Notes under the pieces: model-generated
The model's input: the letters and a program-made list of their open reading frames with translations, nothing else
Told to the model about the DNA's origin: nothing
Database searches by the model: none
In this document: positions 1,776-12,149 of the stretch, piece after piece
Layout: each line of letters begins with the position of its first letter
How positions within the stretch are numbered: position 1 is the stretch's first letter
NCBI GenBank assembly: GCA_020349685.1
Contig: CP070698.1
Location: 1,620,288 to 1,632,436, forward strand
Direction of reading: 5' to 3'
Length of the DNA: 12,149 nucleotides
DNA from: a bacterium
GTDB taxonomy: Bacteria > BMS3Abin14
Translations under genes and position numbers: made by a program

Positions 1776-3302
1776 CTAGAAACCAGTCACTGGATTATCC
1801 AGCACCGGTCGATATTGCAGTGCTTCTGCTAAATGTTCCGGAGTTGGAAAATCTATTCCTTCCAGGTCCGCGATGGTCCTGGCCACCCTCAGGATCCGGT
1901 GGTATCCGCGGGCCGTCAGGCCCATGCTCTTCAGGGCCCTTTCCATGATCTTTACGTGCTCCTTGTCCATGGGACACAGCTCCGCGATGTGATCCGGACC
2001 CAGGCGGGCGTTGAGCACGGGGAACCCGGCCGCGGCGCGCGCATCCTGGATCTTCCTGCAGGCGAGAACCCTTTCCCGGACCTCAGCGGTGGGCTCTTTC
2101 AATGGATCACCCGTGATCATTTCCGGTCCCAGGGCCCTGACCTGGATGACGAGGTCGATCCTGTCCATGAGAGGCCCCGAGATTCGGCGGCGGTAGCGGG
2201 ATACAGCCGAGGGAGGGCAGGTGCATGGCCTGGTGTCGTGACCGAGGTATCCGCACGGGCAGGGGTTGGTCGTCCCCACGAGCAGAAACCTGGCGGGGAA
2301 GGTCACCGAGCTGGCGGCCCGCGCTACGACGATCCGCCCGTCTTCAAGGGGCTGCCTGAGCGTCTCGAGGGTGGACCGCCTGAACTCGGATATCTCGTCC
2401 AGAAAAAGGACCCCCCGGTGAGCCAGGGTGACCTCCCCGGGCCTCGGTTTGGTTCCGCCTCCCGCCAACCCCACGTGAGAGATGGTGTGGTGGGGCGCCC
2501 TGAAAACCGGGGTGGTTATGATCCCGTCCTGTACCGTCAGGTGACCGGCGATGCTGTGGATGGCTGTCACCTCCATGGACTCCTCCGCCGTCAGGGGCGG
2601 CAGGAGGCCGGGCATTCGCCTTGCCAGCATCGTTTTTCCAGACCCTGGAGGGCCGGAGAGGAGGATGTTGTGTCCCCCGGCTGCGGCAAGGGCGAGAGCC
2701 CTCTTGGCCATGCCCTGGCCGGCTACCTCACCCAGATCGGGAATGGTGTCCGGATTCCGGACGGGGGGCGGGATCACCTCCTCCAGTTCACGCCGCCCGC
2801 GCAGATATTCGGTGATCTCGGCAAGGTGCGTGACCGGCAGAGGGTTGCATCCTGCCACGAGGGACGCCTCCGATGCCATCTCCCGGGGCAGGATCATACC
2901 GGCGATGCCGGCTCGTCTCGCCAGGAGGGCAGCGGGAAAGGCGGCCTCCCTTCCAACGACATCACCGGTGAGAGACAGTTCGCCCATCACGAGAAGCCCC
3001 TCCAGAGCCTCACGGGGAAAGGCCCGCAGCGTGGCGAGGATCCCCAGAGCGATAGGCAGGTCGAAGCGGCTTCCTTCCTTTTTCAGGTCGGCAGGAGCGA
3101 GGTTCACCGTGATCCTTGAGGGGGGCAGTTCGTAACCGGAGTTCCGGAGCGCCGCGATGACCCTCTCGCGGCTCTCGCGGATCGCCGTGTCCCCCATCCC
3201 GACGATGGTCAGTCCGGGCAGTCCGCCTGCCATATCCAGTTCCACATGGACGGGAACGGCCTCGAGGCCCTTGATGGTGCAGGAAAGGATTTTAGAGACC
3301 AA
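1776..3302 (-). CDS. comM: YifB/ComM family Mg-chelatase-like AAA+ ATPase (508 aa)
   Basis: Hallmark motifs GLPGLTIVG, ESRERV, RITVNLAPADLKKEGSRFDLPIA, GELSLTG, Walker A GPPGSGKT, FRAPHH, PGEVTLAHRGVLFLDE, NPCPCG and RISGPLMDRID. Start re-called to TTG at 3302, which has AGGAGG 8 nt upstream, instead of 3338. Confidence 0.96.
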   Translation of the reverse strand: MVSKILSCTIKGLEAVPVHVELDMAGGLPGLTIVGMGDTAIRESRERVIAALRNSGYELPPSRITVNLAPADLKKEGSRFDLPIALGILATLRAFPREALEGLLVMGELSLTGDVVGREAAFPAALLARRAGIAGMILPREMASEASLVAGCNPLPVTHLAEITEYLRGRRELEEVIPPPVRNPDTIPDLGEVAGQGMAKRALALAAAGGHNILLSGPPGSGKTMLARRMPGLLPPLTAEESMEVTAIHSIAGHLTVQDGIITTPVFRAPHHTISHVGLAGGGTKPRPGEVTLAHRGVLFLDEISEFRRSTLETLRQPLEDGRIVVARAASSVTFPARFLLVGTTNPCPCGYLGHDTRPCTCPPSAVSRYRRRISGPLMDRIDLVIQVRALGPEMITGDPLKEPTAEVRERVLACRKIQDARAAAGFPVLNARLGPDHIAELCPMDKEHVKIMERALKSMGLTARGYHRILRVARTIADLEGIDFPTPEHLAEALQYRPVLDNPVTGF

Positions 3303-3372
3303 GACGAGATCCTCCTTTTGGTTGTTTTGAAAAAACATTCTGCAATGGAGGGGCCAAGGGGAGGATCCTGAA

Positions 3373-3408
3373 TCAGCTTTCAGCTGGCTGCTGTCAGCTC
3401 AGAGCTGA
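3373..3408. repeat. Heptamer array (TCAGCTn) with inverted copy
   Basis: TCAGCTT TCAGCTG GCTGCTG TCAGCTC, then GAGCTGA. TCAGCTC-A-GAGCTGA (3394-3408) is a perfect 7-bp inverted repeat. Confidence 0.6.
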
Positions 3409-3490
3409 TCTCAGGCTGTATTTCTATTTCATACAACTGGTAGGACTGCCTCACCAATTTGCGGGAAACGCATCCGGCGCATGGATATCA

Positions 3491-3503
3491 TAACTTGTTG
3501 ATT
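3491..3503 (-). promoter_or_regulatory. IHF binding site (distal)
   Basis: Reverse complement AATCAACAAGTTA matches WATCAANNNNTTR exactly, in an AT-rich context. Confidence 0.65.
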
Positions 3504-3770
3504 TTGATGGAAAAAAATTAGAATTGCTCGCTTTTTACATCTTAAAACCCGAAGCCGGGAACCCAAAAAGGTGTCTAAACCGGTGTTTCCGGAACTGTAT
3601 ATTTTTTCGACCATTCCATTGTTATCAAAAATACCTTTAATTAACAGTAATTTACAGTTGTTGTCGGGTAAGCGCCGCGTCGGCTGATGGTTTTTCCGAA
3701 TATTTTTCTCATACAACACCACCCCTAAAATACTTTTTCCCATGTCACATGTAGAAAAAAAGTCTTTTAA

Positions 3771-3783
3771 ATTCAAAGTTTTA
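3771..3783 (+). promoter_or_regulatory. IHF binding site (proximal)
   Basis: ATTCAAAGTTTTA is one mismatch from WATCAANNNNTTR, has an A-tract upstream and ends about 30 bp before the sigma54 -24 box, the usual position. Confidence 0.55.
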
Positions 3784-3809
3784 TAAAAACACACAATTTT
3801 ATGCATGTA

Positions 3810-3826
3810 TTGGCACGCTTGATGCT
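3810..3826 (+). promoter_or_regulatory. Sigma54 (RpoN) -24/-12 promoter
   Basis: TTGGCACGCTTGATGCT, with GG at 3812-3813 and GC at 3824-3825 separated by exactly 10 nt. TGGCACG is full consensus. Lies about 70 nt upstream of the first operon gene. Confidence 0.88.
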
Positions 3827-3898
3827 TCCTGCAGGGTGTCTAGCGATGCGCTCCCCTCAAGGGGAACACGGAAAAACGGGTCATAAGGAGGTCCTGTC

Positions 3899-4174
3899 AT
3901 GAAAGCGTATCCGGGTAAGTTGATGGTCCTGAAGAGGAGGGTAATGACTGTCCTGGTACCCTGCCTCTTCGCCGCAACGCTGGCTTCCGCCGACACGGCC
4001 GGCAGCACCGGGGCTGGAGGGATGAGTCCCCTGACCATGATCTTCCTGGGGCTGCTGGCCGCCATCATCCTTCTGCAGCTGATTCCGGCCATGGTCCTTT
4101 TCGGCTCCATGATCGTGGCGGTGTTCAAGCGGTCGGCCAAAAAGGTTGCGGCCACCACCAGTGATGAGGTGTGA
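3899..4174 (+). CDS. Small membrane protein, paralog 1 (signal peptide plus long hydrophobic segment, 91 aa)
   Basis: AAGGAGG RBS; signal-like region ending TLASA; hydrophobic core IFLGLLAAIILLQLIPAMVLFGSMIVAVFKR; similar to 4688-4948. Confidence 0.8.
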   Translation: MKAYPGKLMVLKRRVMTVLVPCLFAATLASADTAGSTGAGGMSPLTMIFLGLLAAIILLQLIPAMVLFGSMIVAVFKRSAKKVAATTSDEV

Positions 4175-4244
4175 GACGGGCGTGAGGCTCTACAGAGGTT
4201 TGCCTCTTGAGGGAGTTCGAGGGCTGTAGAAGGGGAGTGAGGCC

Positions 4245-4649
4245 ATGGGAATGCTTCTCATAGCGGATGAGGATGTTAAAACCCGGCAAAACATGGAGCA
4301 GCTTTTCGGGGATACCGAATACCAGGTCGTTGCGGCTGATTCGGTGGATTCTGTCATGAGAGACGTCCTGAAAAGGGACGCCCAGGTCGTCCTTCTCGGG
4401 AACGCCTTCGATGATATTCCCGCAGGAGACCTGGTCCCGATCCTGAAAAAGTGCAACCGGAACCTGACCATCATCCTCGTTTCCAACGAGGAGTCCCTGC
4501 CGCTGCTGAGGAAGCTCAGAAAGGAGGGCATCTTCTATCACGCCCTCAAACCTTCCGCCCAGGAAGACAGGGAGGAGCTGCTTCAGGCTGTCAAGTGCGC
4601 CTTCGAAAACGTTGCCGGGTCGATATCGGCGTCCGGCGCCGCCAAGTAG
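4245..4649 (+). CDS. Single-domain atypical response regulator (pseudo-receiver, 134 aa)
   Basis: CheY-like pattern LLIADED, VVLLG, IILVS, ALKP. The phosphoacceptor position at the end of beta3 is Gly52 rather than Asp. AGGGGAG RBS. Confidence 0.88.
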   Translation: MGMLLIADEDVKTRQNMEQLFGDTEYQVVAADSVDSVMRDVLKRDAQVVLLGNAFDDIPAGDLVPILKKCNRNLTIILVSNEESLPLLRKLRKEGIFYHALKPSAQEDREELLQAVKCAFENVAGSISASGAAK

Positions 4650-4687
4650 GCCTTAATCAGGCGTTAAGGAGATAAAAGGAGGCTGTC

Positions 4688-4948
4688 ATGAAAACGATCA
4701 GAGCATTAATCACAACGGCTGCGATGATCCTGCTTACGGTCCACCAGGCCTATGCCGTGGACACGACACAGACCTACCAGAGCGGGATGCTGGTACTGCT
4801 GTTTCTGGGTGTCTGCGCCCTTATCGTCGTTGCCCAGATGGTGCCGGCCCTCATTCTCATGATGGGGACGATCTCCGCTCTTGCCAAGAAGTTGAGGCGG
4901 AAAGAAAGGGCTGCCGTGACCAACACGGGTCAGGAGATCATCGATTGA
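4688..4948 (+). CDS. Small membrane protein, paralog 2 (86 aa)
   Basis: AAGGAGG RBS; signal peptide ending AYA; core LFLGVCALIVVAQMVPALILMMGTISALAKK followed by a basic tail. Confidence 0.85.
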   Translation: MKTIRALITTAAMILLTVHQAYAVDTTQTYQSGMLVLLFLGVCALIVVAQMVPALILMMGTISALAKKLRRKERAAVTNTGQEIID

Positions 4949-4953
4949 CCCTC

Positions 4954-4980
4954 AAGGGCGTCTGGCTTGCGCCCTTTTTT
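4954..4980 (+). terminator. Intrinsic terminator-like hairpin inside the gene cluster
   Basis: AAGGGCG-tctggcttg-CGCCCTT with a T6 run (4975-4980), 5 nt after the stop at 4948. Confidence 0.7.
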
Positions 4981-5036
4981 CGGCGGTACCTGGAAGGATC
5001 TCACGGGCGCCTATGCGCCGGAAGGGAGTCATGCAC

Positions 5037-5240
5037 ATGCTGGACCTGTTGAGGCAGTTCTTCAGTTCTGCGGGTGAAATGGTCAAGGTCTACACGCTGG
5101 TCGATTTCTACAACTATATCAAGGCGGTAGAGTACCTGATCTGTGTAGCCTTCTTCGCCACCTTCCCGCTGTTTTACAGGCACGTGATCAAAACATCCTC
5201 CGAGAGGGAGTCCGATTCATTGAAACAAACCGAGGAGTGA
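5037..5240 (+). CDS. HmcD-like small single-TM protein (about 67 aa)
   Basis: YTLVDFYNYIKAVEYLICVAFFATFPLFYRHV resembles the TLxDF...KgxxY plus TM pattern of HmcD-type peptides (from memory). GAAGGGAG at 5021-5028 favours the ATG at 5037; the ORF track starts it at 5013. Confidence 0.65.
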   Translation: MLDLLRQFFSSAGEMVKVYTLVDFYNYIKAVEYLICVAFFATFPLFYRHVIKTSSERESDSLKQTEE

Positions 5241-5331
5241 TGGGACCCGGACCACGGTTCAAGGGAGATCCCCGCAAGGTCCCCTGTCCCGGAGTACCCT
5301 CCGGGGAGCCGCTTTAAACAGGAGGGAAACG

Positions 5332-5853
5332 ATGAAATCGCTTAAAAGGACTACTTTCATCCTGGTGGTGCTGGCCGTCACCCTGCCTCTGACCGGCCTG
5401 GCGAGGAACCTGGAGCTTCCGGAGACGGTGATGCTGGATAAGCTGGTCCATCTTTATTCCGCGGCCGAGTTCGACCACGCGTTCCACACGGAGATAGCGG
5501 ACGACTGCACGGTGTGCCACCACCATTCTGTGGGCATACCCACGACGGATGAAAAATGCGCCAGGTGCCACGGTTCCGAGGAGGTCCTCGACAGGATCGC
5601 CTGCGTAGACTGCCACGCCGCTGATCCTTTTTCGGCCCAGTATCTTGGCGCCAAGGAGGCCGAAAAGGATGCCTTCCATATAGATCAGCCGGGCCTGAAG
5701 GCTGCCTACCACCTGAACTGCCTGAACTGTCACCTGGAGATGGGCGGTCCGGCGGGGTGCGAGGACTGCCATGAGCGGACGGACCTGGGCAACGCGTTCT
5801 ACCGCTCCGGTAATTATGCCCCGAAAGGCGGCAGCACAGGGTCAGCCCACTGA
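5332..5853 (+). CDS. Periplasmic pentaheme class III (cytochrome c3-like) cytochrome c (173 aa)
   Basis: Sec signal peptide; c3-type FDHAFH; five CxxCH motifs (CTVCH, CARCH, CVDCH, CLNCH, CEDCH); GLKAAYHxxC motif; AGGAGG RBS. Confidence 0.93.
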   Translation: MKSLKRTTFILVVLAVTLPLTGLARNLELPETVMLDKLVHLYSAAEFDHAFHTEIADDCTVCHHHSVGIPTTDEKCARCHGSEEVLDRIACVDCHAADPFSAQYLGAKEAEKDAFHIDQPGLKAAYHLNCLNCHLEMGGPAGCEDCHERTDLGNAFYRSGNYAPKGGSTGSAH

Positions 5854-5912
5854 ATTCCTCGGGCGCTGACCCACAGACAGGAAACTGAACATTTTTGATC
5901 AGGAGGTCGCTG

Positions 5913-6854
5913 ATGGAAAAGATAACCCGTAGAAAATTCCTGTCGGTAAGTCTGGCAGGGGCCGCGGCCGGAGCCTTTTGTATGTCGGGCCGGGCTCTGG
6001 GCGCGGGCAATTTCTCGGGATACCCGGAAGGGATGGGTGTCCTGGTGGACCTGACGCGCTGCATCGGCTGCAGGACGTGCGAGGCCGCCTGCAACCGGGA
6101 GCAGAAGCTGCCGGCGCCGGCCGTTTCCTTCGATGACCCGTCGGTCTTTGACCTCGAATACCACGAGGGGCATAAGCGCAGGACCGACGAGAACGCCTTC
6201 ACCGTTGTGAACAGATACGACCAGCCCCAGGGAGAGCCTGTCTACCGGAAGATACAGTGCAACCACTGCAACGAGCCGGCGTGCCTGACCTCCTGTTTCG
6301 TCAACGCCTACACGAAGACGAAAGAAGGGGCCGTGATCTACGATCCCAAGGTCTGCGTGGGATGCAGGAACTGCATGATCGCATGTCCCTTCCGCATCCC
6401 GGCCTACGCCTACTCCAGCGCTCTCAATCCGGTGGTCCGGAAGTGCATTTTCTGCTACGACACCCGCCTGAAATCAGGCAGGCCGCCAGCCTGCGTCGAG
6501 ATCTGCCCCCAGGAGGCGCTGGTCTTCGGTCACAGGAAGAACCTCCTGAAGATCGCCCACGAGCGGATCCGGGGCAACCCCGACAGCTACGTCGATCATG
6601 TTTATGGAGAGTACGAAGTGGGCGGCACGGCATGGGTCTACCTCTCGGGGGTGCCCTTCGAGGAGGTGGGTTTTGACACGGACATCCAGAAGGAGCCCAT
6701 CCTAGCCAATGCCCAGAGTTTTCTCTCCCAGGTCCCCATGGTCCTCGCCATCTGGCCGGCCCTTTTCCTGGGCTTCCACCGGCTGTCGACCAAGGGCGGT
6801 GAACCGGAAGATGCAAAAGGTGGCAAATCTGAATCAGAGGGGGTGCGGTCATGA
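5913..6854 (+). CDS. hmcB: Tat-exported 4x[4Fe-4S] electron-transfer subunit, HmcB/HybA family (313 aa)
   Basis: TRRKFL twin-arginine signal; four Cys groups CIGCRTCEAAC, CNHCNEPACLTSC, CVGCRNCMIACP and CIFC...PACVEICP; HVYGEYEVGGTAWVYLS; C-terminal TM VPMVLAIWP as in HmcB. Start re-called to ATG 5913 (AGGAGG at 5901-5906). Confidence 0.92.
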   Translation: MEKITRRKFLSVSLAGAAAGAFCMSGRALGAGNFSGYPEGMGVLVDLTRCIGCRTCEAACNREQKLPAPAVSFDDPSVFDLEYHEGHKRRTDENAFTVVNRYDQPQGEPVYRKIQCNHCNEPACLTSCFVNAYTKTKEGAVIYDPKVCVGCRNCMIACPFRIPAYAYSSALNPVVRKCIFCYDTRLKSGRPPACVEICPQEALVFGHRKNLLKIAHERIRGNPDSYVDHVYGEYEVGGTAWVYLSGVPFEEVGFDTDIQKEPILANAQSFLSQVPMVLAIWPALFLGFHRLSTKGGEPEDAKGGKSESEGVRS

Positions 6855-8197
6855 GATCCCTGGTCAAGAACGGTTATCAGCCTGTCACTTCCGCGATAGA
6901 GGAAGGCAGTGAGAGGCGCTGGAGTTTCACGGACAAACTTTTCCTCGGCCTGACGCCCCGTGAATACTTGCGGCAGGCGCTGAAGAACCCCTTTAACTGG
7001 ATCCTGGGAGCCATCTTCGCCGTCGGTTTCCCTCTGATCCTGTACCGGTTCATCTTCGGGCTCGGCGCAGTGACCCACTCTTCCAACGATTATCCCTGGG
7101 GACTTTTCCTCGGATTTGGTCTTTTCGTGATGGTGCCCCTTTCCGCCTCCGGCTTCCTGCTCGGGACGACGGTGGAGCTTTTCGGGCGGAAGGATTTCAA
7201 GCCCATAGAGCGCCTGGCCCTGCTCAACGGCCTCATGGGATACTTCTTTGCAGTGGTCTACCTCCTTGTGGACCTGGGCCAGCCCTGGCGCCTGCCTTAC
7301 CCCATGGTCGTGGCCTGGGGCACGGCGGCGGTGCTTTTCCTTGTGGGCTGGCACGTCGCCACCTACCTCACCGTCCAGATGATGGAGGTTTCGGAGGCTT
7401 TCTTCGAGTGGGCCCATTGGCCCATGGCGAAGAGGTTCATCAAGAGAATCACCATCGGCCTGACCATTGCCGGTATCATCCTGTCCACGCTGCACCAGGG
7501 AGCCCTGGGAGCCCTCTTTACCTACGCTCCCACCAAGGTCCATCCTCTGTGGTACTCCCAGGAGTTCCTGTGGATATTCTTCTTTGTCTCCAGCATATTC
7601 GCGGGGCTTTGCATGGTGATCTTAGTGAGCACGGTGGTCAAAAAGACGATGGCCTGGAGGTGCAGCGAAGAGTGGCTGGCCAAACTCGACAGCCAGACCC
7701 TGGGCCTGGCCAAGGGAGCCAGCATGGCTCTCATCACCTACTTTGTGATCAAGATCATCGGAGTGGCTCACGACAACGAGTGGGCCTACATAGGAACGGG
7801 TTGGGGCCAGTGGTTCATGTTCGAGCTGTTCGCCGGGGTCCTGCTCCCCCTGGTGACCCTCAGTTACGGGATCAGGTTCCAGCGTGTTGGCCTGGTCCGG
7901 TTCGGGGCTTTTATCGCTGTGGCCGGAATCGTTATAAACAGGCTCAACACGGCGATCATCACCTTCAACTGGAACCTCTATCAGGAGATCCCCCACCTGT
8001 TCGAGGTGGTCATCTCGGTCACGCTCTTTGCGGTCTACATCACAACCTACCGTTTCATCCTGTACCGGCTGCCCATCGTCTACGCCTGGAAAGCAGTGCC
8101 GGTTGAGGTCATGGAGAGGGTGACGGAAGTGGGCAGGGTCCCGGGTGTCATCGGCCAGCCCACAGGAGCTTTCTCGGAGGCGAAGGTACCTGATTGA
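6851..8197 (+). CDS. hmcC: NrfD/PsrC-family integral membrane subunit, HmcC/HybB-like (448 aa)
   Basis: ATGA overlap with the FeS gene; about 10 hydrophobic segments; motifs YPWG, DLGQPWRLPYP, LSTLHQGALG, KVHPLWYS, FFFVSS and NRLN. Confidence 0.9.
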   Translation: MRSLVKNGYQPVTSAIEEGSERRWSFTDKLFLGLTPREYLRQALKNPFNWILGAIFAVGFPLILYRFIFGLGAVTHSSNDYPWGLFLGFGLFVMVPLSASGFLLGTTVELFGRKDFKPIERLALLNGLMGYFFAVVYLLVDLGQPWRLPYPMVVAWGTAAVLFLVGWHVATYLTVQMMEVSEAFFEWAHWPMAKRFIKRITIGLTIAGIILSTLHQGALGALFTYAPTKVHPLWYSQEFLWIFFFVSSIFAGLCMVILVSTVVKKTMAWRCSEEWLAKLDSQTLGLAKGASMALITYFVIKIIGVAHDNEWAYIGTGWGQWFMFELFAGVLLPLVTLSYGIRFQRVGLVRFGAFIAVAGIVINRLNTAIITFNWNLYQEIPHLFEVVISVTLFAVYITTYRFILYRLPIVYAWKAVPVEVMERVTEVGRVPGVIGQPTGAFSEAKVPD

Positions 8198-8250
8198 CGT
8201 AAGAACCTGGAAGGCCCCGGCGGGGCAGGTCTCTGACGAAAGGAAGGGAG

Positions 8251-9075
8251 ATGTTCAAGCATTTCGCCACCAGGGAGATCATCAACGTGGCAGCGGTGGT
8301 GACCGGATTCACCGTCGTCTGCTGCATCCTGCTCTACACTTTCATCAAAGCGGACATGAAGCAGGACTACATCCGTTACGAGGCCGACCTCGCCGACACG
8401 ATCCTGCGGTCCATGAGGCACGCCATGATGCGCTCGGACAGCGGCAGCATTCAGGAGATCATCATCGACGTGGGTGAGCTCGACCGCGTCGAGTACGTCC
8501 GGGTCTTCAGGTGCACAGGCGTTGTCAGCTTCTCGAACAACGCACAAGAGATAAACAACACCTACGCCGGTGAAACGGAGGTCTGCGCAAAGTGCCACAG
8601 GAACGGGGACCCCGCCACCGGCCTGGAAACGATGGAGAAAGCCAGCACTTACAGTAACAGACAGGGACTCCAGATCATGAGCATCGTAACACCGATCCGC
8701 AATGAGCCCGGTTGCCTGGTGGGGGACTGCCATGCCGGGCAGGACGAAAAACCCCTGCTCGGCATCCTGGACATCGGTCTCAGCCAGCAGCAGGTGGAAC
8801 ATTCCCTGGCAAGACTGCGGTTGCGTATGGTCATCTTTTGCGTCATGATTCTCATATTGAGTATTGCGGGGGTGACCGCTCTTCTTTGGCGCAGCGTGAT
8901 GCAGCCCTTGGGTGAACTCGTGGATTTTGCCAGCCGATGTTACGAGGGGAAACATGGGGATGAGGCACCACTGGGTACCAGCGAGATCAACGAGATCGGG
9001 GAGATCCTGCGGAAGTTTGCGGTGGAAAGGTCGGTCCCGCCGGCCAAATCCCAAAAGGAGGACGACCTTTCTTAA
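8251..9075 (+). CDS. Membrane sensor with periplasmic c-heme motifs and a degenerate HAMP, no output domain (274 aa)
   Basis: Two TM helices flank a periplasmic domain with CAKCH (8584-8598) and NEPG-CLVGDCH (8713-8733). HAMP-like QPLGEL...SEINEIG is followed by a stop. Collinear with the sensor part of 10269-11819. Confidence 0.85.
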   Translation: MFKHFATREIINVAAVVTGFTVVCCILLYTFIKADMKQDYIRYEADLADTILRSMRHAMMRSDSGSIQEIIIDVGELDRVEYVRVFRCTGVVSFSNNAQEINNTYAGETEVCAKCHRNGDPATGLETMEKASTYSNRQGLQIMSIVTPIRNEPGCLVGDCHAGQDEKPLLGILDIGLSQQQVEHSLARLRLRMVIFCVMILILSIAGVTALLWRSVMQPLGELVDFASRCYEGKHGDEAPLGTSEINEIGEILRKFAVERSVPPAKSQKEDDLS

Positions 9076-9177
9076 GGTGACCGGGGAGGGGGAATCATCA
9101 ATAACCCTGTCACCGACCGCCCTGGGGGGCGAAATCAGGAAAGGCAACCGGTTCGATCACACGCGGGATAGCTGCCA

Positions 9178-9690
9178 ATGAGTGATGATCGGACCGGTGC
9201 CCCCCGGGTTAAGCCTGAAGTCATAGAGGAGACCTCGCAGCAGGTTTCCCAGGTCCGGGAAAGGATCAAAAGCCTGCGAGCCCGAGCGAGGCTGGGGGGA
9301 TGGGGGCTGGCCGCCTACGTCACCGTGAGCGTGCTCTCCATCCCCGACAGTCATCTCCTGCCGGCCCTTTCCGAGTCTGTCCGCCGTTTCCTCGGTGCTG
9401 CCCCGCCTTCCAACCTCATCAGTATTGCCCTCGTGGTCTACGCCTTTTCCGCCCTCACTCTCATCCTCGCGCGCATCGCCCAGGGATCGGGCACCTACAA
9501 AGGGTGGTCCCACCTGCTGTACATCACATCCTTCTATATTTTCTTCGGGTTCGCCGGGACCCTCCGTGAAACCTACTGGGCCGTTTTCGTATCCGGCCTC
9601 CTCATAATGGGCCTGGAGAACTACCTGATACGGAATTACGTCTCGGAGGAGATCAGAAGGGAGGAGAGGAAGCTGAAAGGCGGTTTCTAG
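9178..9690 (+). CDS. 4-TM membrane protein of unknown function, candidate accessory subunit of the quinol oxidoreductase (170 aa)
   Basis: N-terminal coiled/basic region, then four hydrophobic segments (GLAAYVTVSVLSI; LISIALVVYAFSALTLIL; GWSHLLYITSFYIFFGF; YWAVFVSGLLIMGLE). Co-oriented with the cluster, with matching codon style. Confidence 0.8.
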   Translation: MSDDRTGAPRVKPEVIEETSQQVSQVRERIKSLRARARLGGWGLAAYVTVSVLSIPDSHLLPALSESVRRFLGAAPPSNLISIALVVYAFSALTLILARIAQGSGTYKGWSHLLYITSFYIFFGFAGTLRETYWAVFVSGLLIMGLENYLIRNYVSEEIRREERKLKGGF

Positions 9691-9929
9691 TTTCCAGGGT
9701 CTGGTGTCTAGATAATTGAAGGTTTGGAGTTCTGGGTCCGATATCATTAATGCGGTGGACAACCAGTCCGTGTTATTGAGAGTCTCACGCTTCTTCGCAA
9801 GTGGTATCTGTTCGGCCGCTGGGGACGTATTCAACGCCTGCTTGATTCTGCGGAGTAACCGCGACGTCTTTTGGCATTAATAAAGGAATTCTCTCTTCTT
9901 CCAGAAACTAGACCCCAGAAACTAGACAC
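9687..9929. repeat. Inverted pair of AAACTAG-type heptamer arrays bracketing about 200 bp
   Basis: The reverse complement of CTAGTTTCCAGGGTCTGGT (9687-9705) matches ACTAGACCCCAGAAACTAG (9907-9925) at 16/19. The right arm contains CCAGAAACTAGAC twice. Confidence 0.6.
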
Positions 9930-9930
9930 T

Positions 9931-9980
9931 CAAGATCTGGTCCGATTATTTAGGCTCTATAATTACCGGACCAGATCTTG
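9931..9980. repeat. Perfect 14-bp inverted repeat with 22-nt AT-rich spacer
   Basis: CAAGATCTGGTCCG (9931-9944) and CGGACCAGATCTTG (9967-9980); the spacer contains TATAAT (9958-9963). Confidence 0.85.
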
Positions 9981-10059
9981 GTGTATACTTACACTAAACA
10001 CCGGTAAATTGGGGCCCGGGCCGCGACAAAGCCGAAGAACGCTCGACTGGATGAAGGGA

Positions 10060-10249
10060 CGACTGAGCGGCTTAGCGATTTAAGCGAGCTTACGAAAAAG
10101 ACATAATCTGGATTACCGGAAGGGCGAAAAAATGAGCGAGCCCCGACTCAATCGTTTTGTTTTACGCTTTATCGCTCCGTCGCTTCGTCGCCCGTTCGCC
10201 ATGTCGGAAGACCCTTCGCTCAGTCGCCTAGCCGCTCAGTCGCTCAGTC
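10060..10249. repeat. Inverted pair of octamer (TCGCTCAG) tandem arrays
   Basis: CGACTGAG CGGCTTAG CGATTTAA at 10060-10083; TCGCTCCG TCGCTTCG TCGCCCGT TCGCCATG at 10172-10203; TCGCTCAG TCGCCTAG CCGCTCAG TCGCTCAG at 10216-10247. Perfect 13-bp complement between 10060-10072 and 10230-10242. Confidence 0.75.
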
Positions 10250-10268
10250 AAATAAAGGGGGGGCACGC

Positions 10269-11819
10269 ATGCGTCTGGGCCTGATGATCAAATTCTCCAT
10301 TATCAGCGCTCTTGTTCTGCTCTTTACCATGAGCCTCTTCACCCTTTTTAACATCGCGGGGCTCAGGAGGGCTTTCATGGACGTCTACACCAACGATGTG
10401 GACAACCTGAGCGAGACGATCATTGCCACCACCAGTCACGCCATGCTTTCCGGGGAGGTGGACGAGGCTTACCAGCTCATGGAGAGGGCCGGGACACAGG
10501 AGAACATTAAGAATATACGCCTCATCGACAAACACGGTACCATCCGTTTCTCCCTGAAAAAGGAAGAGATCGGCACCTTCGTGGACAGCAGCCGCGATCC
10601 GGGCTGTGACATGTGCCATTTTGCGGGGGAGCCGAGGGTCCAGGCTTCCACCATGGATCGAAGACGGGTGTTCCCGGTCTCGGAAGGTGAGGAGGTCCTC
10701 GGCGTCATCAGAGGGATCTATAACGAACCCGCATGCTCGGAGGCATCGTGTCATTACCATCCGGCCGACGTGAACCTTCTCGGCGTACTCGATATCGTCG
10801 TTTCCACCAAAGAGGTCGTGGCCCAGATCACCAGTTACAGGAACAACGTCCTCGTGGAACTCGTCTTTCTCGTCATCGCCCTCTCACTCTGCCTGAACCT
10901 GCTGACGCGAAAACTCATTACCCACCCCGTCAACACCCTGCTGGATCACACCAGGATGCTTTCCCGTGGCGAGTGGGGCTATATCGAAAATATTACAAAC
11001 GACGAGTTCGGGGAACTGGCCGAATCCTTCAATGACATGACCAGAAGCCTCAAGAAGGCCGAAGAGGAGAGGGAAAGGTGGGCCGCCACCCTGGAGACCA
11101 AGGTCGAGGAGCGGACCCAGCAGATAAAGGAGATGCAGTCGGTCATCGTCCGTTCGGAGAAGCTGGCTTCCCTCGGTGAACTGGCGGCCGGCATCGCCCA
11201 CGAGCTCAACAATCCGCTGACAGGGATCGTCCTCCACGCTTCCATCATCGAGGAGAACCAAGACCTTCCGCCCCGGGTCAAGGAGGAGATCGGCACCATA
11301 ACCTGGGAGGCCGACCGCTGCGCCAGGATCGTCAAGAACCTTCTCGATTTTTCCAGGAAGACGGAGCCGCGCAAAGGCATGAACAGCGTGAACGAGACCC
11401 TTGACAGGGCCCTCGGGCTGGTCGAACACCTGGCCAGCTTCCATAATATCGACATCGTCAGGGAGTACGCCGATAACCTGCCGGACCTGCTCATCGATCC
11501 GGGTCAGATGGAACAGGTCTTCGTTAACATGTTCGTTAACGCGAGCCAGGCCATGGAAGATGGCGGGAAACTTATTCTCTGGACCGGCTTGGACGTGGAC
11601 GGGGAATCGGTCATCGTGCGGATAAAGGATACAGGACGCGGGATCCCCAAGGGCCATCTCGGCCGCATCTTTGATCCCTTCTTCAGCACCAAGGGAGCCA
11701 AAGGGACCGGTCTGGGCCTCTCCGTTTCCTACGGCATCATCGAGGGGCACGGAGGGACAATAGAGGTGCAAAGCGAGGTTGGGAAGGGGACGGAGTTTAC
11801 GATCACAATTCCTGTTTAG
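10269..11819 (+). CDS. Sensor histidine kinase with periplasmic c-heme motifs, HAMP, HisKA and HATPase_c (516 aa)
   Basis: Two TMs; CDMCH (10605-10619) and NEPA-CSEASCH (10734-10754); HAMP (DEFGELAESFNDM); H box AHELNNPL; N box QVFVNMFVNA; G1 DTGRG; F box FDPFFST; G2 GTGLGL. Confidence 0.96.
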   Translation: MRLGLMIKFSIISALVLLFTMSLFTLFNIAGLRRAFMDVYTNDVDNLSETIIATTSHAMLSGEVDEAYQLMERAGTQENIKNIRLIDKHGTIRFSLKKEEIGTFVDSSRDPGCDMCHFAGEPRVQASTMDRRRVFPVSEGEEVLGVIRGIYNEPACSEASCHYHPADVNLLGVLDIVVSTKEVVAQITSYRNNVLVELVFLVIALSLCLNLLTRKLITHPVNTLLDHTRMLSRGEWGYIENITNDEFGELAESFNDMTRSLKKAEEERERWAATLETKVEERTQQIKEMQSVIVRSEKLASLGELAAGIAHELNNPLTGIVLHASIIEENQDLPPRVKEEIGTITWEADRCARIVKNLLDFSRKTEPRKGMNSVNETLDRALGLVEHLASFHNIDIVREYADNLPDLLIDPGQMEQVFVNMFVNASQAMEDGGKLILWTGLDVDGESVIVRIKDTGRGIPKGHLGRIFDPFFSTKGAKGTGLGLSVSYGIIEGHGGTIEVQSEVGKGTEFTITIPV

Positions 11820-11828
11820 ACAGGAATT

Positions 11829-11973
11829 GCGATCCGTGACCAGTGACTAGTGATTCGTGATTGGATGATTACCACGATCCGTGATCCGTAATTAACAAAT
11901 TTACTTTTCAAACTGACTGTGTTGTTTGGGTGTGTATTTCGAGTTACGAGTCACGAATAACGAATCACGGATC
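11829..11973. repeat. Inverted pair of heptamer (GTGATTC) arrays between convergent genes; possible bidirectional terminator
   Basis: Left arm GCGATCC GTGACCA GTGACTA GTGATTC GTGATTG (11829-11863) plus ACGATCC GTGATCC GTAATTA (11874-11894). Right arm GAGTTAC GAGTCAC GAATAAC GAATCAC GGATC (11941-11973). GATCCGTGA and TCACGGATC pair perfectly. Confidence 0.8.
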
Positions 11974-12149
11974 TATCCCTTCACCCCCCTCTCCTTCACC
12001 GAGATCCCCTGCTTCTTCAACAGGGACTGGAAGTTGGGCCGCAACATGCCAACCTCTTGGGCGGCCCGGGTTACGTTCCAGTCGTTGCGCTCGAGGGCGG
12101 CCAGGAGGAACGCCTGCTCCAGGGGTTTGACCGCGTCCTCCCGGAGCTT
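11973..12149 (-). CDS. C-terminal Fis-type HTH of a probable sigma54-dependent (NtrC-family) transcriptional activator; gene starts beyond the window
   Basis: Minus strand from 12149 reads KLREDAVKPLEQAFLLAALERNDWNVTRAAQEVGMLRPNFQSLLKKQGISVKERGVKG* (stop 11973-11975), matching the LExxxlxxAL...WNVtxAA..lG HTH_8 pattern. Not in the ORF track. Confidence 0.9.
   Translation of the reverse strand, partial: KLREDAVKPLEQAFLLAALERNDWNVTRAAQEVGMLRPNFQSLLKKQGISVKERGVKG

Follow-up and report, generated by a model that had tools for sequence, protein, structure and literature searches.

We analysed a window of 12,149 nucleotides (the whole stretch of DNA whose first lines stand above; positions are counted from its first letter) that carries genes for a small membrane-bound electron-transfer complex, together with two putative heme sensors, a receiver-like protein, and a regulator. 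Ten genes lie on the forward (+) strand from 3899 to 11819, separated by short gaps, and an eleventh is present as its last 58 codons on the reverse (-) strand at the right edge. A preliminary description of this DNA, made without database searches, had listed these genes, and all of them are where it placed them, as judged by open reading frames (ORFs) and by matches to Pfam and NCBIfam. Our family searches covered 15 candidate ORFs out of the 73 listed for the window. A hydropathy scan gave membrane topologies that agree with those first called, and scans of the window for Rfam families and tRNAs gave no matches.

The first three genes encode a small membrane protein, a receiver domain, and another small membrane protein. 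tmA (3899-4174, +; 91 amino acids) is a small protein that spans the membrane once, begins with a signal-like sequence, and ends in a basic tail; pREC (4245-4649, +) is a stand-alone receiver domain (PF00072, Response_reg, 39 bits) with glycine at the phospho-acceptor position; and tmB (4688-4948, +) is a paralogue of tmA (E = 3e-7). Four genes for the complex follow. The first encodes a 75-amino-acid subunit with a single transmembrane segment and a weak match to NF045712 (5013-5240, +; a later start at 5031 or 5037, preceded by the ribosome-site-like GGAAGGGAG, is possible). The others encode a periplasmic c3-family cytochrome of 173 amino acids with five CXXCH motifs (5332-5853, +; CbcX-like by composition); an HmcB/HybA-like iron-sulfur protein with a Tat signal (RRKFL), four clusters, and a C-terminal transmembrane segment (5895-6854, +); and an HmcC/HybB-like (NrfD-type) integral membrane subunit, predicted to interact with quinones, with 9 hydrophobic segments (6851-8197, +).

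Behind the core are sens2h (8251-9075, +; 274 amino acids), which consists of a transmembrane segment, a di-heme PDC/PAS-like periplasmic domain, a second transmembrane segment, and a HAMP-like segment, with no output domain, and which is CbcD-like; and tm4 (9178-9690, +), a helical membrane protein from a small family, whose likeness to CbcE is a lead only. A terminator-like hairpin with a T-run (9849-9873, +) lies 3' of these genes. The last two genes converge: a di-heme sensor histidine kinase (10269-11819, +), with a periplasmic domain of the sens2h type followed by HAMP, HisKA, and HATPase domains, and the C-terminal 58 amino acids (HTH_8) of a BccR-like sigma54 activator (11973-12149, -), which is cut by the window edge. 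Neither Pfam nor NCBIfam assigned a family to tmA, tmB, the 75-amino-acid protein, or tm4.

To compare the window with its relatives, we used loci from species-representative genomes that were scanned with the NrfD-like protein. We kept the best 80 of 234 relatives, with up to 10 kb on each side, and scored genes as present by tblastn with the window's proteins; the source genome is not among the 80, and the best identity was 74%. The cytochrome and the iron-sulfur protein were each present in 77 of the 77 loci where they could be assessed. Five accessory genes were found less widely: the HmcD-like gene, adjacent to the core, in 59/75 loci; tmB in 57/75; pREC in 53/74; the kinase-less sensor sens2h in 57/74; and tm4, the 4-helix membrane protein, in 58/74. 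Both sides could be assessed in 69 loci, of which 47 contain the full set of five accessory genes, 15 contain none, and 7 contain a part of the set.

The regulators go with the accessory genes. Considering loci with at least 7 kb on both flanks, the activator is present in 33 of 34 with accessory genes and in 0 of 10 that have only the core, and the di-heme kinase is matched over its full length (≥90% of the query, within about 10 kb) in 23/34 and 0/10, respectively. The expectation in the preliminary description that the parts would occur together in other genomes is thus borne out. The loci with accessory genes are from Desulfuromonadales, Geobacteraceae, Geomonas, Citrifermentans, and Malonomonas, and the core-only loci are largely from Desulfobulbales-type bacteria (Desulfocapsa, Desulfopila, Desulfurivibrio). 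The complete cluster is a conserved feature of Desulfuromonadia-type bacteria, which respire iron and sulfur. The kinase and activator genes occur in three arrangements: ahead of the cluster and on its strand, ahead of it with a divergently transcribed activator, or behind it and converging, which is the arrangement in the window; that the association was kept despite these changes of place and strand argues for selection. In one core-only locus (L062, 5628-6542), an IS1595-family transposase and an FtsH gene are directly upstream of the cytochrome gene, and beyond them are PAS kinases and a sigma54 activator of a different domain layout.

The regulator at the right edge had been expected to have the form REC-AAA-HTH with a sigma54-contacting loop. 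Its orthologues, of about 470 amino acids, are REC-AAA+-HTH proteins, and 48 of 50 ORFs contain GSFTGA (the other two are short fragments). Pfam confirmed this architecture in two of them (L001 and L059), and NCBIfam gave NtrC/AtoC-type matches in three (L001, L005, and L059).

A sigma54 promoter with -24 and -12 elements (TGGCACGCTTGATGC, 3811-3825, +) lies 74 nucleotides 5' of the start of tmA, within an AT-rich gap of 560 nucleotides. In the relatives, its position is conserved. Requiring fixed GG and GC and at least 8 of 10 consensus bases, we found a sigma54-like site 300-480 nucleotides 5' of the gene for the receiver in 40 of the 53 loci that could be used, as compared to 311 of 10510 control windows of equal size (3%). 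The consensus from 42 loci is TGGCACG-N4-ATGC. We also considered a second sigma54 promoter before the cytochrome and the other core genes, and rejected it: such a site is present in 7/53 loci, or roughly what is expected by chance.

Upstream of this promoter, the relatives have a conserved motif, YATACAHY, which is a candidate binding site for the activator. It is found at -110 to -85 in 19/42 loci (232/52539 background windows) and at -230 to -188 in 24/42 loci, where inverted pairs are frequent. Counting either offset, 30/42 loci have the motif, compared to a background of 0.4-0.7% and to 1/336 other windows of the same upstream regions. The sharp clustering of positions is a stronger argument than the enrichment. 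The window's own copy (CATACAAC, 3710-3717, +) is at -101. A near-match to the distal motif in reverse orientation (CTGTATA, 3593-3603, +) is at about -212 and was left outside the motif count.

The preliminary description also placed sites for IHF in this region. One exact match to the consensus (AATCAACAAGTTA, 3491-3503, -) does lie about 320 nucleotides upstream of the -24 element, and a site with one mismatch (3771-3783, +) is well placed, with the -101 motif on one side and the promoter on the other. A single exact match is not significant (0.23 were expected, and 39/200 shuffled sequences had at least one). These IHF sites are plausible, and the counts do not support them.

We also noticed a repeated word, GGTGTCTAR, which occurs three times in the window (3570-3578, 3835-3843, and 9703-9711) versus 0.08 expected; 0/200 shuffled sequences reached three. 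One copy is just past the -12 element, near the expected start of transcription; one is at -241; and one is within an inverted repeat after tm4. The word is one base away from GGTGTATR, the reverse complement of the upstream motif.

The cluster had been described as two transcription units separated by a terminator after the third gene, tmB. There is a real hairpin with a T-run at 4954-4980 (+), with an 8-bp stem and a 7-nucleotide loop, yet the split is not conserved: by our criteria, such a hairpin is present in 1/58 loci, and the one is the window itself, so we rejected a conserved terminator at this place. The scan of the window for terminators did not flag it, and the fold of 4940-5020 is not unusual (z = -0.15). 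Because the next start codon is only 28 nucleotides away and there is no promoter there, we read the genes from tmA to tm4 as one operon with at most a partial stop at 4954-4980. The hairpin is possibly a partial terminator or an attenuator.

The receiver in the leader lacks the aspartate that is the usual site of phosphorylation, as had been noted from the window, and so do all of its relatives. We aligned the window's pREC, 54 orthologues, and eight REC domains from the activators. The phospho-acceptor column contains serine (32) or glycine (23) in 55/55 receivers and aspartate in 8/8 activators. Since the aspartate is missing from all 55 receivers, its loss is old and has been maintained. 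The window's pREC does retain the upstream acidic residues, as well as the serine and the Lys-Pro that belong to strands 4 and 5, respectively. In one locus (L045, 5954-8203), the leader cassette of small membrane protein, receiver, and small membrane protein is duplicated in tandem 5' of the core genes.

Ten loci (L007, L011-L015, L041, L053, L059, and L060) contain a second receiver paralogue, on the opposite strand and about 7 kb away, that is 41-53% identical to the window's pREC. These loci give direct evidence that the window's cluster is related to the cbcBA locus of Geobacter sulfurreducens. The second type forms a separate clade from the first (support 98/91), and it also lacks the aspartate (glycine in 10 and serine in 1, counting the tandem duplicate of L045, which groups with the first type). 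The second cassettes have their own sigma54-like site in 10/10 cases and YATACAHY in 0/10, which fits two activators with different targets. The gene downstream of the second cassette is visible in just one of the ten loci, L053. There, a small ORF, the receiver, and another small ORF are followed by a 361-amino-acid cytochrome with seven CXXCH motifs and a C-terminal hydrophobic helix, which matches the published description of CbcA, a subunit of the Cbc5 complex of Geobacter sulfurreducens. The stretch that separates the two cassettes contains the orthologue of the window's activator, another sigma54 activator, and a hybrid kinase of the form GAF-PAS-HisKA-HATPase-REC (Pfam on L053 and L059); in L053 itself, tblastn gave no match to the tail of the window's activator.

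The electron-transfer core resembles two known kinds of complexes: in composition it matches Cbc3 of G. sulfurreducens, and in architecture it matches the Nhc and Hmc complexes of Desulfovibrio. The five CXXCH motifs of the cytochrome are conserved across 78 sequences. It is most similar to the C-terminal c3 domain of HmcA (E = 2.5e-12), the nine-heme cytochrome (E = 2.6e-9), and TmcA. It is not the 16-heme HmcA, as it has five CXXCH in 173 amino acids and matches only the C-terminal part of the HmcA model, at 46 bits versus a cutoff of 400. The iron-sulfur protein is most similar to HmcB (387 bits, below the cutoff of 420), and the membrane subunit to HmcC (364 bits, below the cutoff of 550) and HybB (173 bits). 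HmcD is the best NCBIfam match of the 75-amino-acid protein, as the earlier label of "HmcD-like" implied, but at E = 0.098 and 12.6 bits it is below the cutoff of 34, so the label is a weak one; a homologue in L062 matches HmcD at E = 0.0016. There were no family matches to HmcE or HmcF among the 15 candidate ORFs. With five hemes instead of 16, no E or F subunits, and all subunits below the equivalog cutoffs, this is not an Hmc complex. The suggestion that the core fits one of the Cbc-type clusters of Geobacter proved apt, and by its composition (an iron-sulfur protein, a HybB-like "cytochrome b", and a 5-heme cytochrome) the cluster would be Cbc3. The CbcA/CbcB core of Cbc5 (a 7-heme cytochrome c with a di-heme cytochrome b) is absent from the window by ORFs, Pfam, and NCBIfam.

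Whether such a complex takes electrons from the quinone pool or delivers them to it is something that the sequence cannot decide. The Hmc and Nhc complexes of Desulfovibrio run from periplasmic cytochromes into the quinone pool. If the complex in the window ran in the same direction, then electrons from periplasmic cytochromes, originating from the oxidation of hydrogen or formate or from uptake from outside the cell, would be passed to menaquinone. The best family matches (HmcB, HmcC, HmcD, the c3 domain of HmcA, and the nine-heme cytochrome, all from sulfate reducers) are consistent with this, and the matches to HybA and HybB point to electron delivery to quinone as in hydrogenase-2. However, Pfam and NCBIfam identified no hydrogenase or formate dehydrogenase genes in the window, and the cluster belongs to Desulfuromonadia-type genomes, whose Cbc clusters are predicted to be quinol oxidases in the review that we cite (PMC13591261). 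We consider the Hmc/Nhc direction to be possible but doubtful.

The two heme proteins are related to each other. sens2h aligns with residues 10-269 of the kinase (E = 9e-22), across the first transmembrane segment, the periplasmic domain, the second transmembrane segment, and the HAMP region, and it ends about 15 residues past the HAMP-like segment. The heme motifs align as well: CAKCH of sens2h with CDMCH of the kinase, and CLVGDCH with CSEASCH. By homology, then, sens2h is a paralogue of the input module of the kinase that has no kinase domains, in agreement with its first description as a sensor that lacks a kinase. In an alignment of 42 members of the sensor family, the residues C112, C115, H116, C155, C160, and H161 do not vary. 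All 61 sequences of the sensor set and all 38 kinases contain the CX4CH motif (the sensor set includes one row, L033, that is actually the kinase of a truncated locus). In six loci (L053, L058, L065, L069, L072, and L073), the sensor gene is about 800 nucleotides further from the NrfD-like gene; the gap between the two genes in L065 contains an extra 251-amino-acid cytochrome with nine CXXCH motifs and c7-like repeats (for example 11419-12174).

Both the sequence matches and an AlphaFold2 model suggest that the sensor domains have a PDC/PAS-like fold with a heme-c motif, and heme attachment is predicted. Foldseek matched the model of sens2h to the PDC/Cache-type extracytoplasmic domains of WalK, KinD, DctB, and CitA and to the heme-c domain of GSU0935 (E = 1e-8 to 5e-3), and GSU0582 was also among the fold matches. 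The top matches of the sensor's sequence profile to chains in PDB were weak but of the same kind, GSU0582 (E = 0.11) and GSU0935 (E = 0.24). GSU0582 and GSU0935 (PDB 3B47 and 3B42; PF21563) share with our sensors a PDC/PAS-like fold and a covalent heme motif; they differ in being single-heme chemoreceptors, whereas the two proteins of the window each have both a CXXCH and a CX4CH motif and feed into a kinase or into no output at all. The match to PF21563 is at 17.9 bits versus a cutoff of 27, and more distant members of the family in the databases do carry PF21563.

For tm4, we have fewer clues. Its model has a high predicted local distance difference test score (pLDDT 91.4), but there was no fold match in PDB at E ≤ 0.001, and the matches listed are chance helical bundles. 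A profile search of 1.84 billion proteins identified 158 representatives of its family, and none of the matches was to a much longer multidomain protein that could hint at the function. In the Atlas, the cluster closest to it bears the name "Menaquinol oxidoreductase family protein" (score 0.95), which is a lead and not a test. A complex of sens2h with tm4 was predicted with a score of 0.12, versus a mark of 0.32, which speaks neither for nor against binding.

sens2h and tm4 might instead be structural or electron-carrying subunits of the oxidoreductase, as CbcD and CbcE are annotated. In that case, their hemes would conduct electrons and would not serve in sensing. Their genes always close the operon, they travel with the core (in the 57/74 and 58/74 loci given above, and with the other accessory genes in the 47/69), and they persist in the 11/34 loci without a full-length di-heme kinase match. 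CbcD is itself annotated as a cytochrome c subunit of Cbc5 (PMC7894505), and the Atlas name of tm4 fits as well. On the other hand, sens2h is paralogous to the kinase's sensor module from the first transmembrane segment through the HAMP region, its fold matches ligand-sensing domains and not cytochromes, and HAMP-like segments are not known to take part in electron transfer. The sensor fold and the HAMP-like segment make a pure electron carrier less likely, and we think it rather unlikely that the pair are simply subunits. Nor does sens2h seem to be merely a decoy of the di-heme kinase, as the pair remains in those 11 loci.

We propose that tmA, pREC, tmB, the HmcD-like gene, the cytochrome, the iron-sulfur protein, the NrfD-like subunit, sens2h, and tm4 form one sigma54-dependent operon for a quinone-linked complex of the inner membrane, of the Cbc3/Nhc type (a "mini-Hmc"), within a regulatory frame of the cbcBA/BccR type. 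We give this proposal a probability of roughly 60%. The kinase would read the redox state of the periplasm via c-type heme in its PDC/PAS-like domain, with CX4CH as the essential site, and would phosphorylate the REC domain of the neighboring BccR-like activator. The activator would then bind the YATACAHY motifs near -100 and -205 and open the sigma54 promoter at 3811-3825. In a certain range of redox conditions, the complex would connect periplasmic cytochromes to the pool of menaquinone. The receiver without aspartate, tmA and tmB, and sens2h with its 4-helix partner may make up a branch that is independent of phosphorylation and that tunes the signalling or the complex, including any feedback.

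We infer the pairing of the kinase and activator with this operon; that they are merely neighbors that control something else, with the operon driven by another activator, is improbable, because even though in the window they lie downstream past a repeat-rich gap of 580 nucleotides instead of being divergent from the promoter, and loci with two cassettes carry two activators and so have an ambiguous pairing, the activator is within about 10 kb in 33/34 loci with accessory genes versus 0/10 core-only loci despite the changes in position and strand, and YATACAHY marks the promoter of the window's type of cassette and not the paralogous one (0/10).

Several points weigh against our proposal. The cluster is known here from sequence alone, and only 58 amino acids of the activator are within the window. 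Within the window by itself, sigma54 matches with up to two mismatches are not above chance (13 versus 10.4 expected), and neither are IHF matches (6 versus 4.7 expected, not significant). The enrichment of YATACAHY is partly circular, as the motif was discovered and counted on the same loci, and the window matches it clearly only at -101. In 11/34 loci with accessory genes, there is no full-length match to the di-heme kinase within about 10 kb, so a heme kinase is not obligatory; the two of these loci that were examined, L053 and L059, have the cytoplasmic GAF-PAS hybrid kinase instead. Although CXXCH is present in 58/61 of the sensor set, it is found in just 25/38 kinases, and 13/38 have thus lost the first heme motif and become one-motif sensors; since CX4CH is in all of them, it is the constant site. 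The model of sens2h has low confidence (pLDDT 64.5). The all-or-none pattern of the accessory genes largely follows two lineages of related genomes, so the loci are not independent events. Finally, homology to the genes of G. sulfurreducens themselves is presumed, from published descriptions and the second cassettes. Protein searches with the sensor, the sensor profile, and the cytochrome gave no matches named after Geobacter or Cbc, so the links to CbcD and CbcX rest on those descriptions.

A broader idea is more speculative, and we put it forward tentatively, as something that we think is unlikely. The leader (small membrane protein, receiver without aspartate, small membrane protein) and the trailer (HAMP-only sensor and 4-helix protein) might be a portable chassis for phosphorylation-free redox signalling that, together with an activator of the BccR type and its sigma54 promoter, has been fitted to two or more unrelated quinone oxidoreductase cores, of the CbcBA type and of the Cbc3/Nhc type. 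The HAMP-only sensor would report the redox state of periplasmic cytochromes to the pseudo-receiver, which would gate the kinase or the activator. If so, each respiratory branch would set its own redox window of expression, and this could be a general answer to the potential-based choice among inner-membrane pathways in Desulfuromonadia.

The gaps around the kinase and activator contain several repeats. Between tm4 and the kinase, within 9683-9980, inverted repeats of 30 nucleotides (80% complementary) flank 187 nucleotides and may be a miniature mobile element; after them is a strong hairpin (9931-9980; 20-nucleotide arms, 90% complementary). These repeats may be the trace of a rearrangement by which the kinase and activator came to lie downstream in the window. 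Just 5' of the start of the kinase, an 11-nucleotide unit (CGCTCAGTCGC) is present five times at 10173-10251 and forms inverted repeats with 10060-10078. Where the kinase and activator genes converge, the gap (11831-11973) contains imperfect inverted repeats of 35 nucleotides made of GATCCGTGA and ATTCGTGA units, which may be a two-way terminator or a repeat element.

The genes upstream of the cluster are unrelated to it: the PDZ end of a DegP/HtrA-type protease (2-154, +), a 70-amino-acid ORF with a weak match to RelB/DinJ antitoxins (655-867, +; E = 0.005), a 209-amino-acid ORF with a Gly/Ser-rich tail and no family (898-1527, +), and a YifB/ComM-type Mg-chelatase-like ATPase (1776-3338, -). 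Just upstream of the start of yifB, which is on the opposite strand, is an inverted repeat of 15 nucleotides, ATCAGCTTTCAGCTG and CAGCTCAGAGCTGAT (3372-3409; 87% complementary).

The known system that is most similar in its regulation is Cbc5. The preliminary description knew of no characterization of this regulatory layer, but the same layout has been published for Cbc5/cbcBA, with experimental evidence for the promoter and for the requirement for BccR. As described by Joshi, Chan and Bond (10.1101/2021.04.15.440034), the cbcBA operon starts at a sigma54 promoter upstream of GSU0597 and also encodes the hypothetical proteins GSU0597 and GSU3489 and the "response regulator" GSU0596. CbcA has 7 hemes and a C-terminal transmembrane helix, and CbcB is a di-heme b-type cytochrome. 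BccR (GSU0598, REC-sigma54-HTH) is divergent from the operon and is needed for the induction of cbcBA late in Fe(III) reduction, at low potential; in mutants of bccR or cbcBA, Fe(III) reduction stops at -0.21 V (10.1101/2021.04.15.440034). Another source gives Cbc5 as cbcEDCBA and describes CbcD as a HAMP-domain-containing protein with two heme sites (PMC7894505). GSU0591 and GSU0599 are the only signal-transduction proteins of G. sulfurreducens listed with two c-type heme motifs of the CX2-4CH form, and GSU0599 is a two-component protein (PMC8396549, PMC3831638). In the sources we cite, GSU0590, 0591, 0596, 0597, 0599, and 3489 appear only in catalogues or as the source of a promoter (PMC8396549, PMC3831638, 10.1101/2021.04.15.440034).

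Judging by these descriptions, both loci have a sigma54 promoter, then a leader of hypothetical protein, receiver, and hypothetical protein, then a membrane oxidoreductase, then a two-heme HAMP protein (CbcD), and then a membrane protein (CbcE, which we relate to tm4 through the Atlas name only), with an adjacent REC-AAA-HTH activator (BccR, GSU0598) and a two-heme sensor kinase (GSU0599). The cores differ: CbcA, CbcB, and CbcC have no counterpart in the window, which has neither a di-heme b-type cytochrome nor a cytochrome with 7 or 12 hemes, and their place is taken by the c3-type cytochrome with its 5 hemes and by subunits that resemble HmcB, HmcC, and HmcD. The second cassettes also differ from the window's type in that their receivers form the separate clade and they do not share the upstream motif.

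The core itself is closest in composition to Cbc3 (CbcVWX, GSU1648-1650), whose subunits are described as the iron-sulfur protein CbcV, the "cytochrome b" CbcW, and the 5-heme cytochrome c CbcX (PMC7894505). Compared by description, these are the same kinds of subunits as in the window, including a membrane subunit that is annotated as cytochrome b. A review gives the role of Cbc3 as unknown (PMC13591261). In G. sulfurreducens, Cbc3 probably lacks the sensor neighbor seen here, as both of the two-heme transducers, GSU0591 and GSU0599, are at Cbc5. A search of the literature on its likely neighbors (GSU1646, GSU1647, and GSU1651-1654) identified no relevant paper. The window would provide a first regulatory context for the uncharacterised Cbc3-type complexes.

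Relative to Hmc and Nhc of Desulfovibrio, the window shares the B, C, and D types of subunit and a c3-type cytochrome. It differs in having 5 hemes instead of 16 or 9, in the small subunit's gene preceding the cytochrome gene, and in the absence of HmcE and HmcF. Nhc also lacks the cytoplasmic E and F subunits and is therefore the nearest "mini-Hmc". To our knowledge, a layer of sigma54 promoter and sensors has not been described for either Hmc or Nhc.

BccR is so far the sole regulator that has been tied to the sensing of redox potential and to switching among inner-membrane branches in Geobacter-type bacteria. The regulatory frame was known at one locus, cbcBA, where just the promoter and the activator have been examined experimentally. 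What appears from the sequences to be new is that this frame is reused around a second, unrelated core; that the aspartate is absent from the receivers of both types of leader; that a conserved upstream motif, YATACAHY, is a candidate site for the activator; and that the CX4CH heme site is invariant. The motif, the invariant CX4CH, the receiver that never has a phosphorylatable aspartate, and the kinase-less paralogue of the sensor offer handles for experiments.

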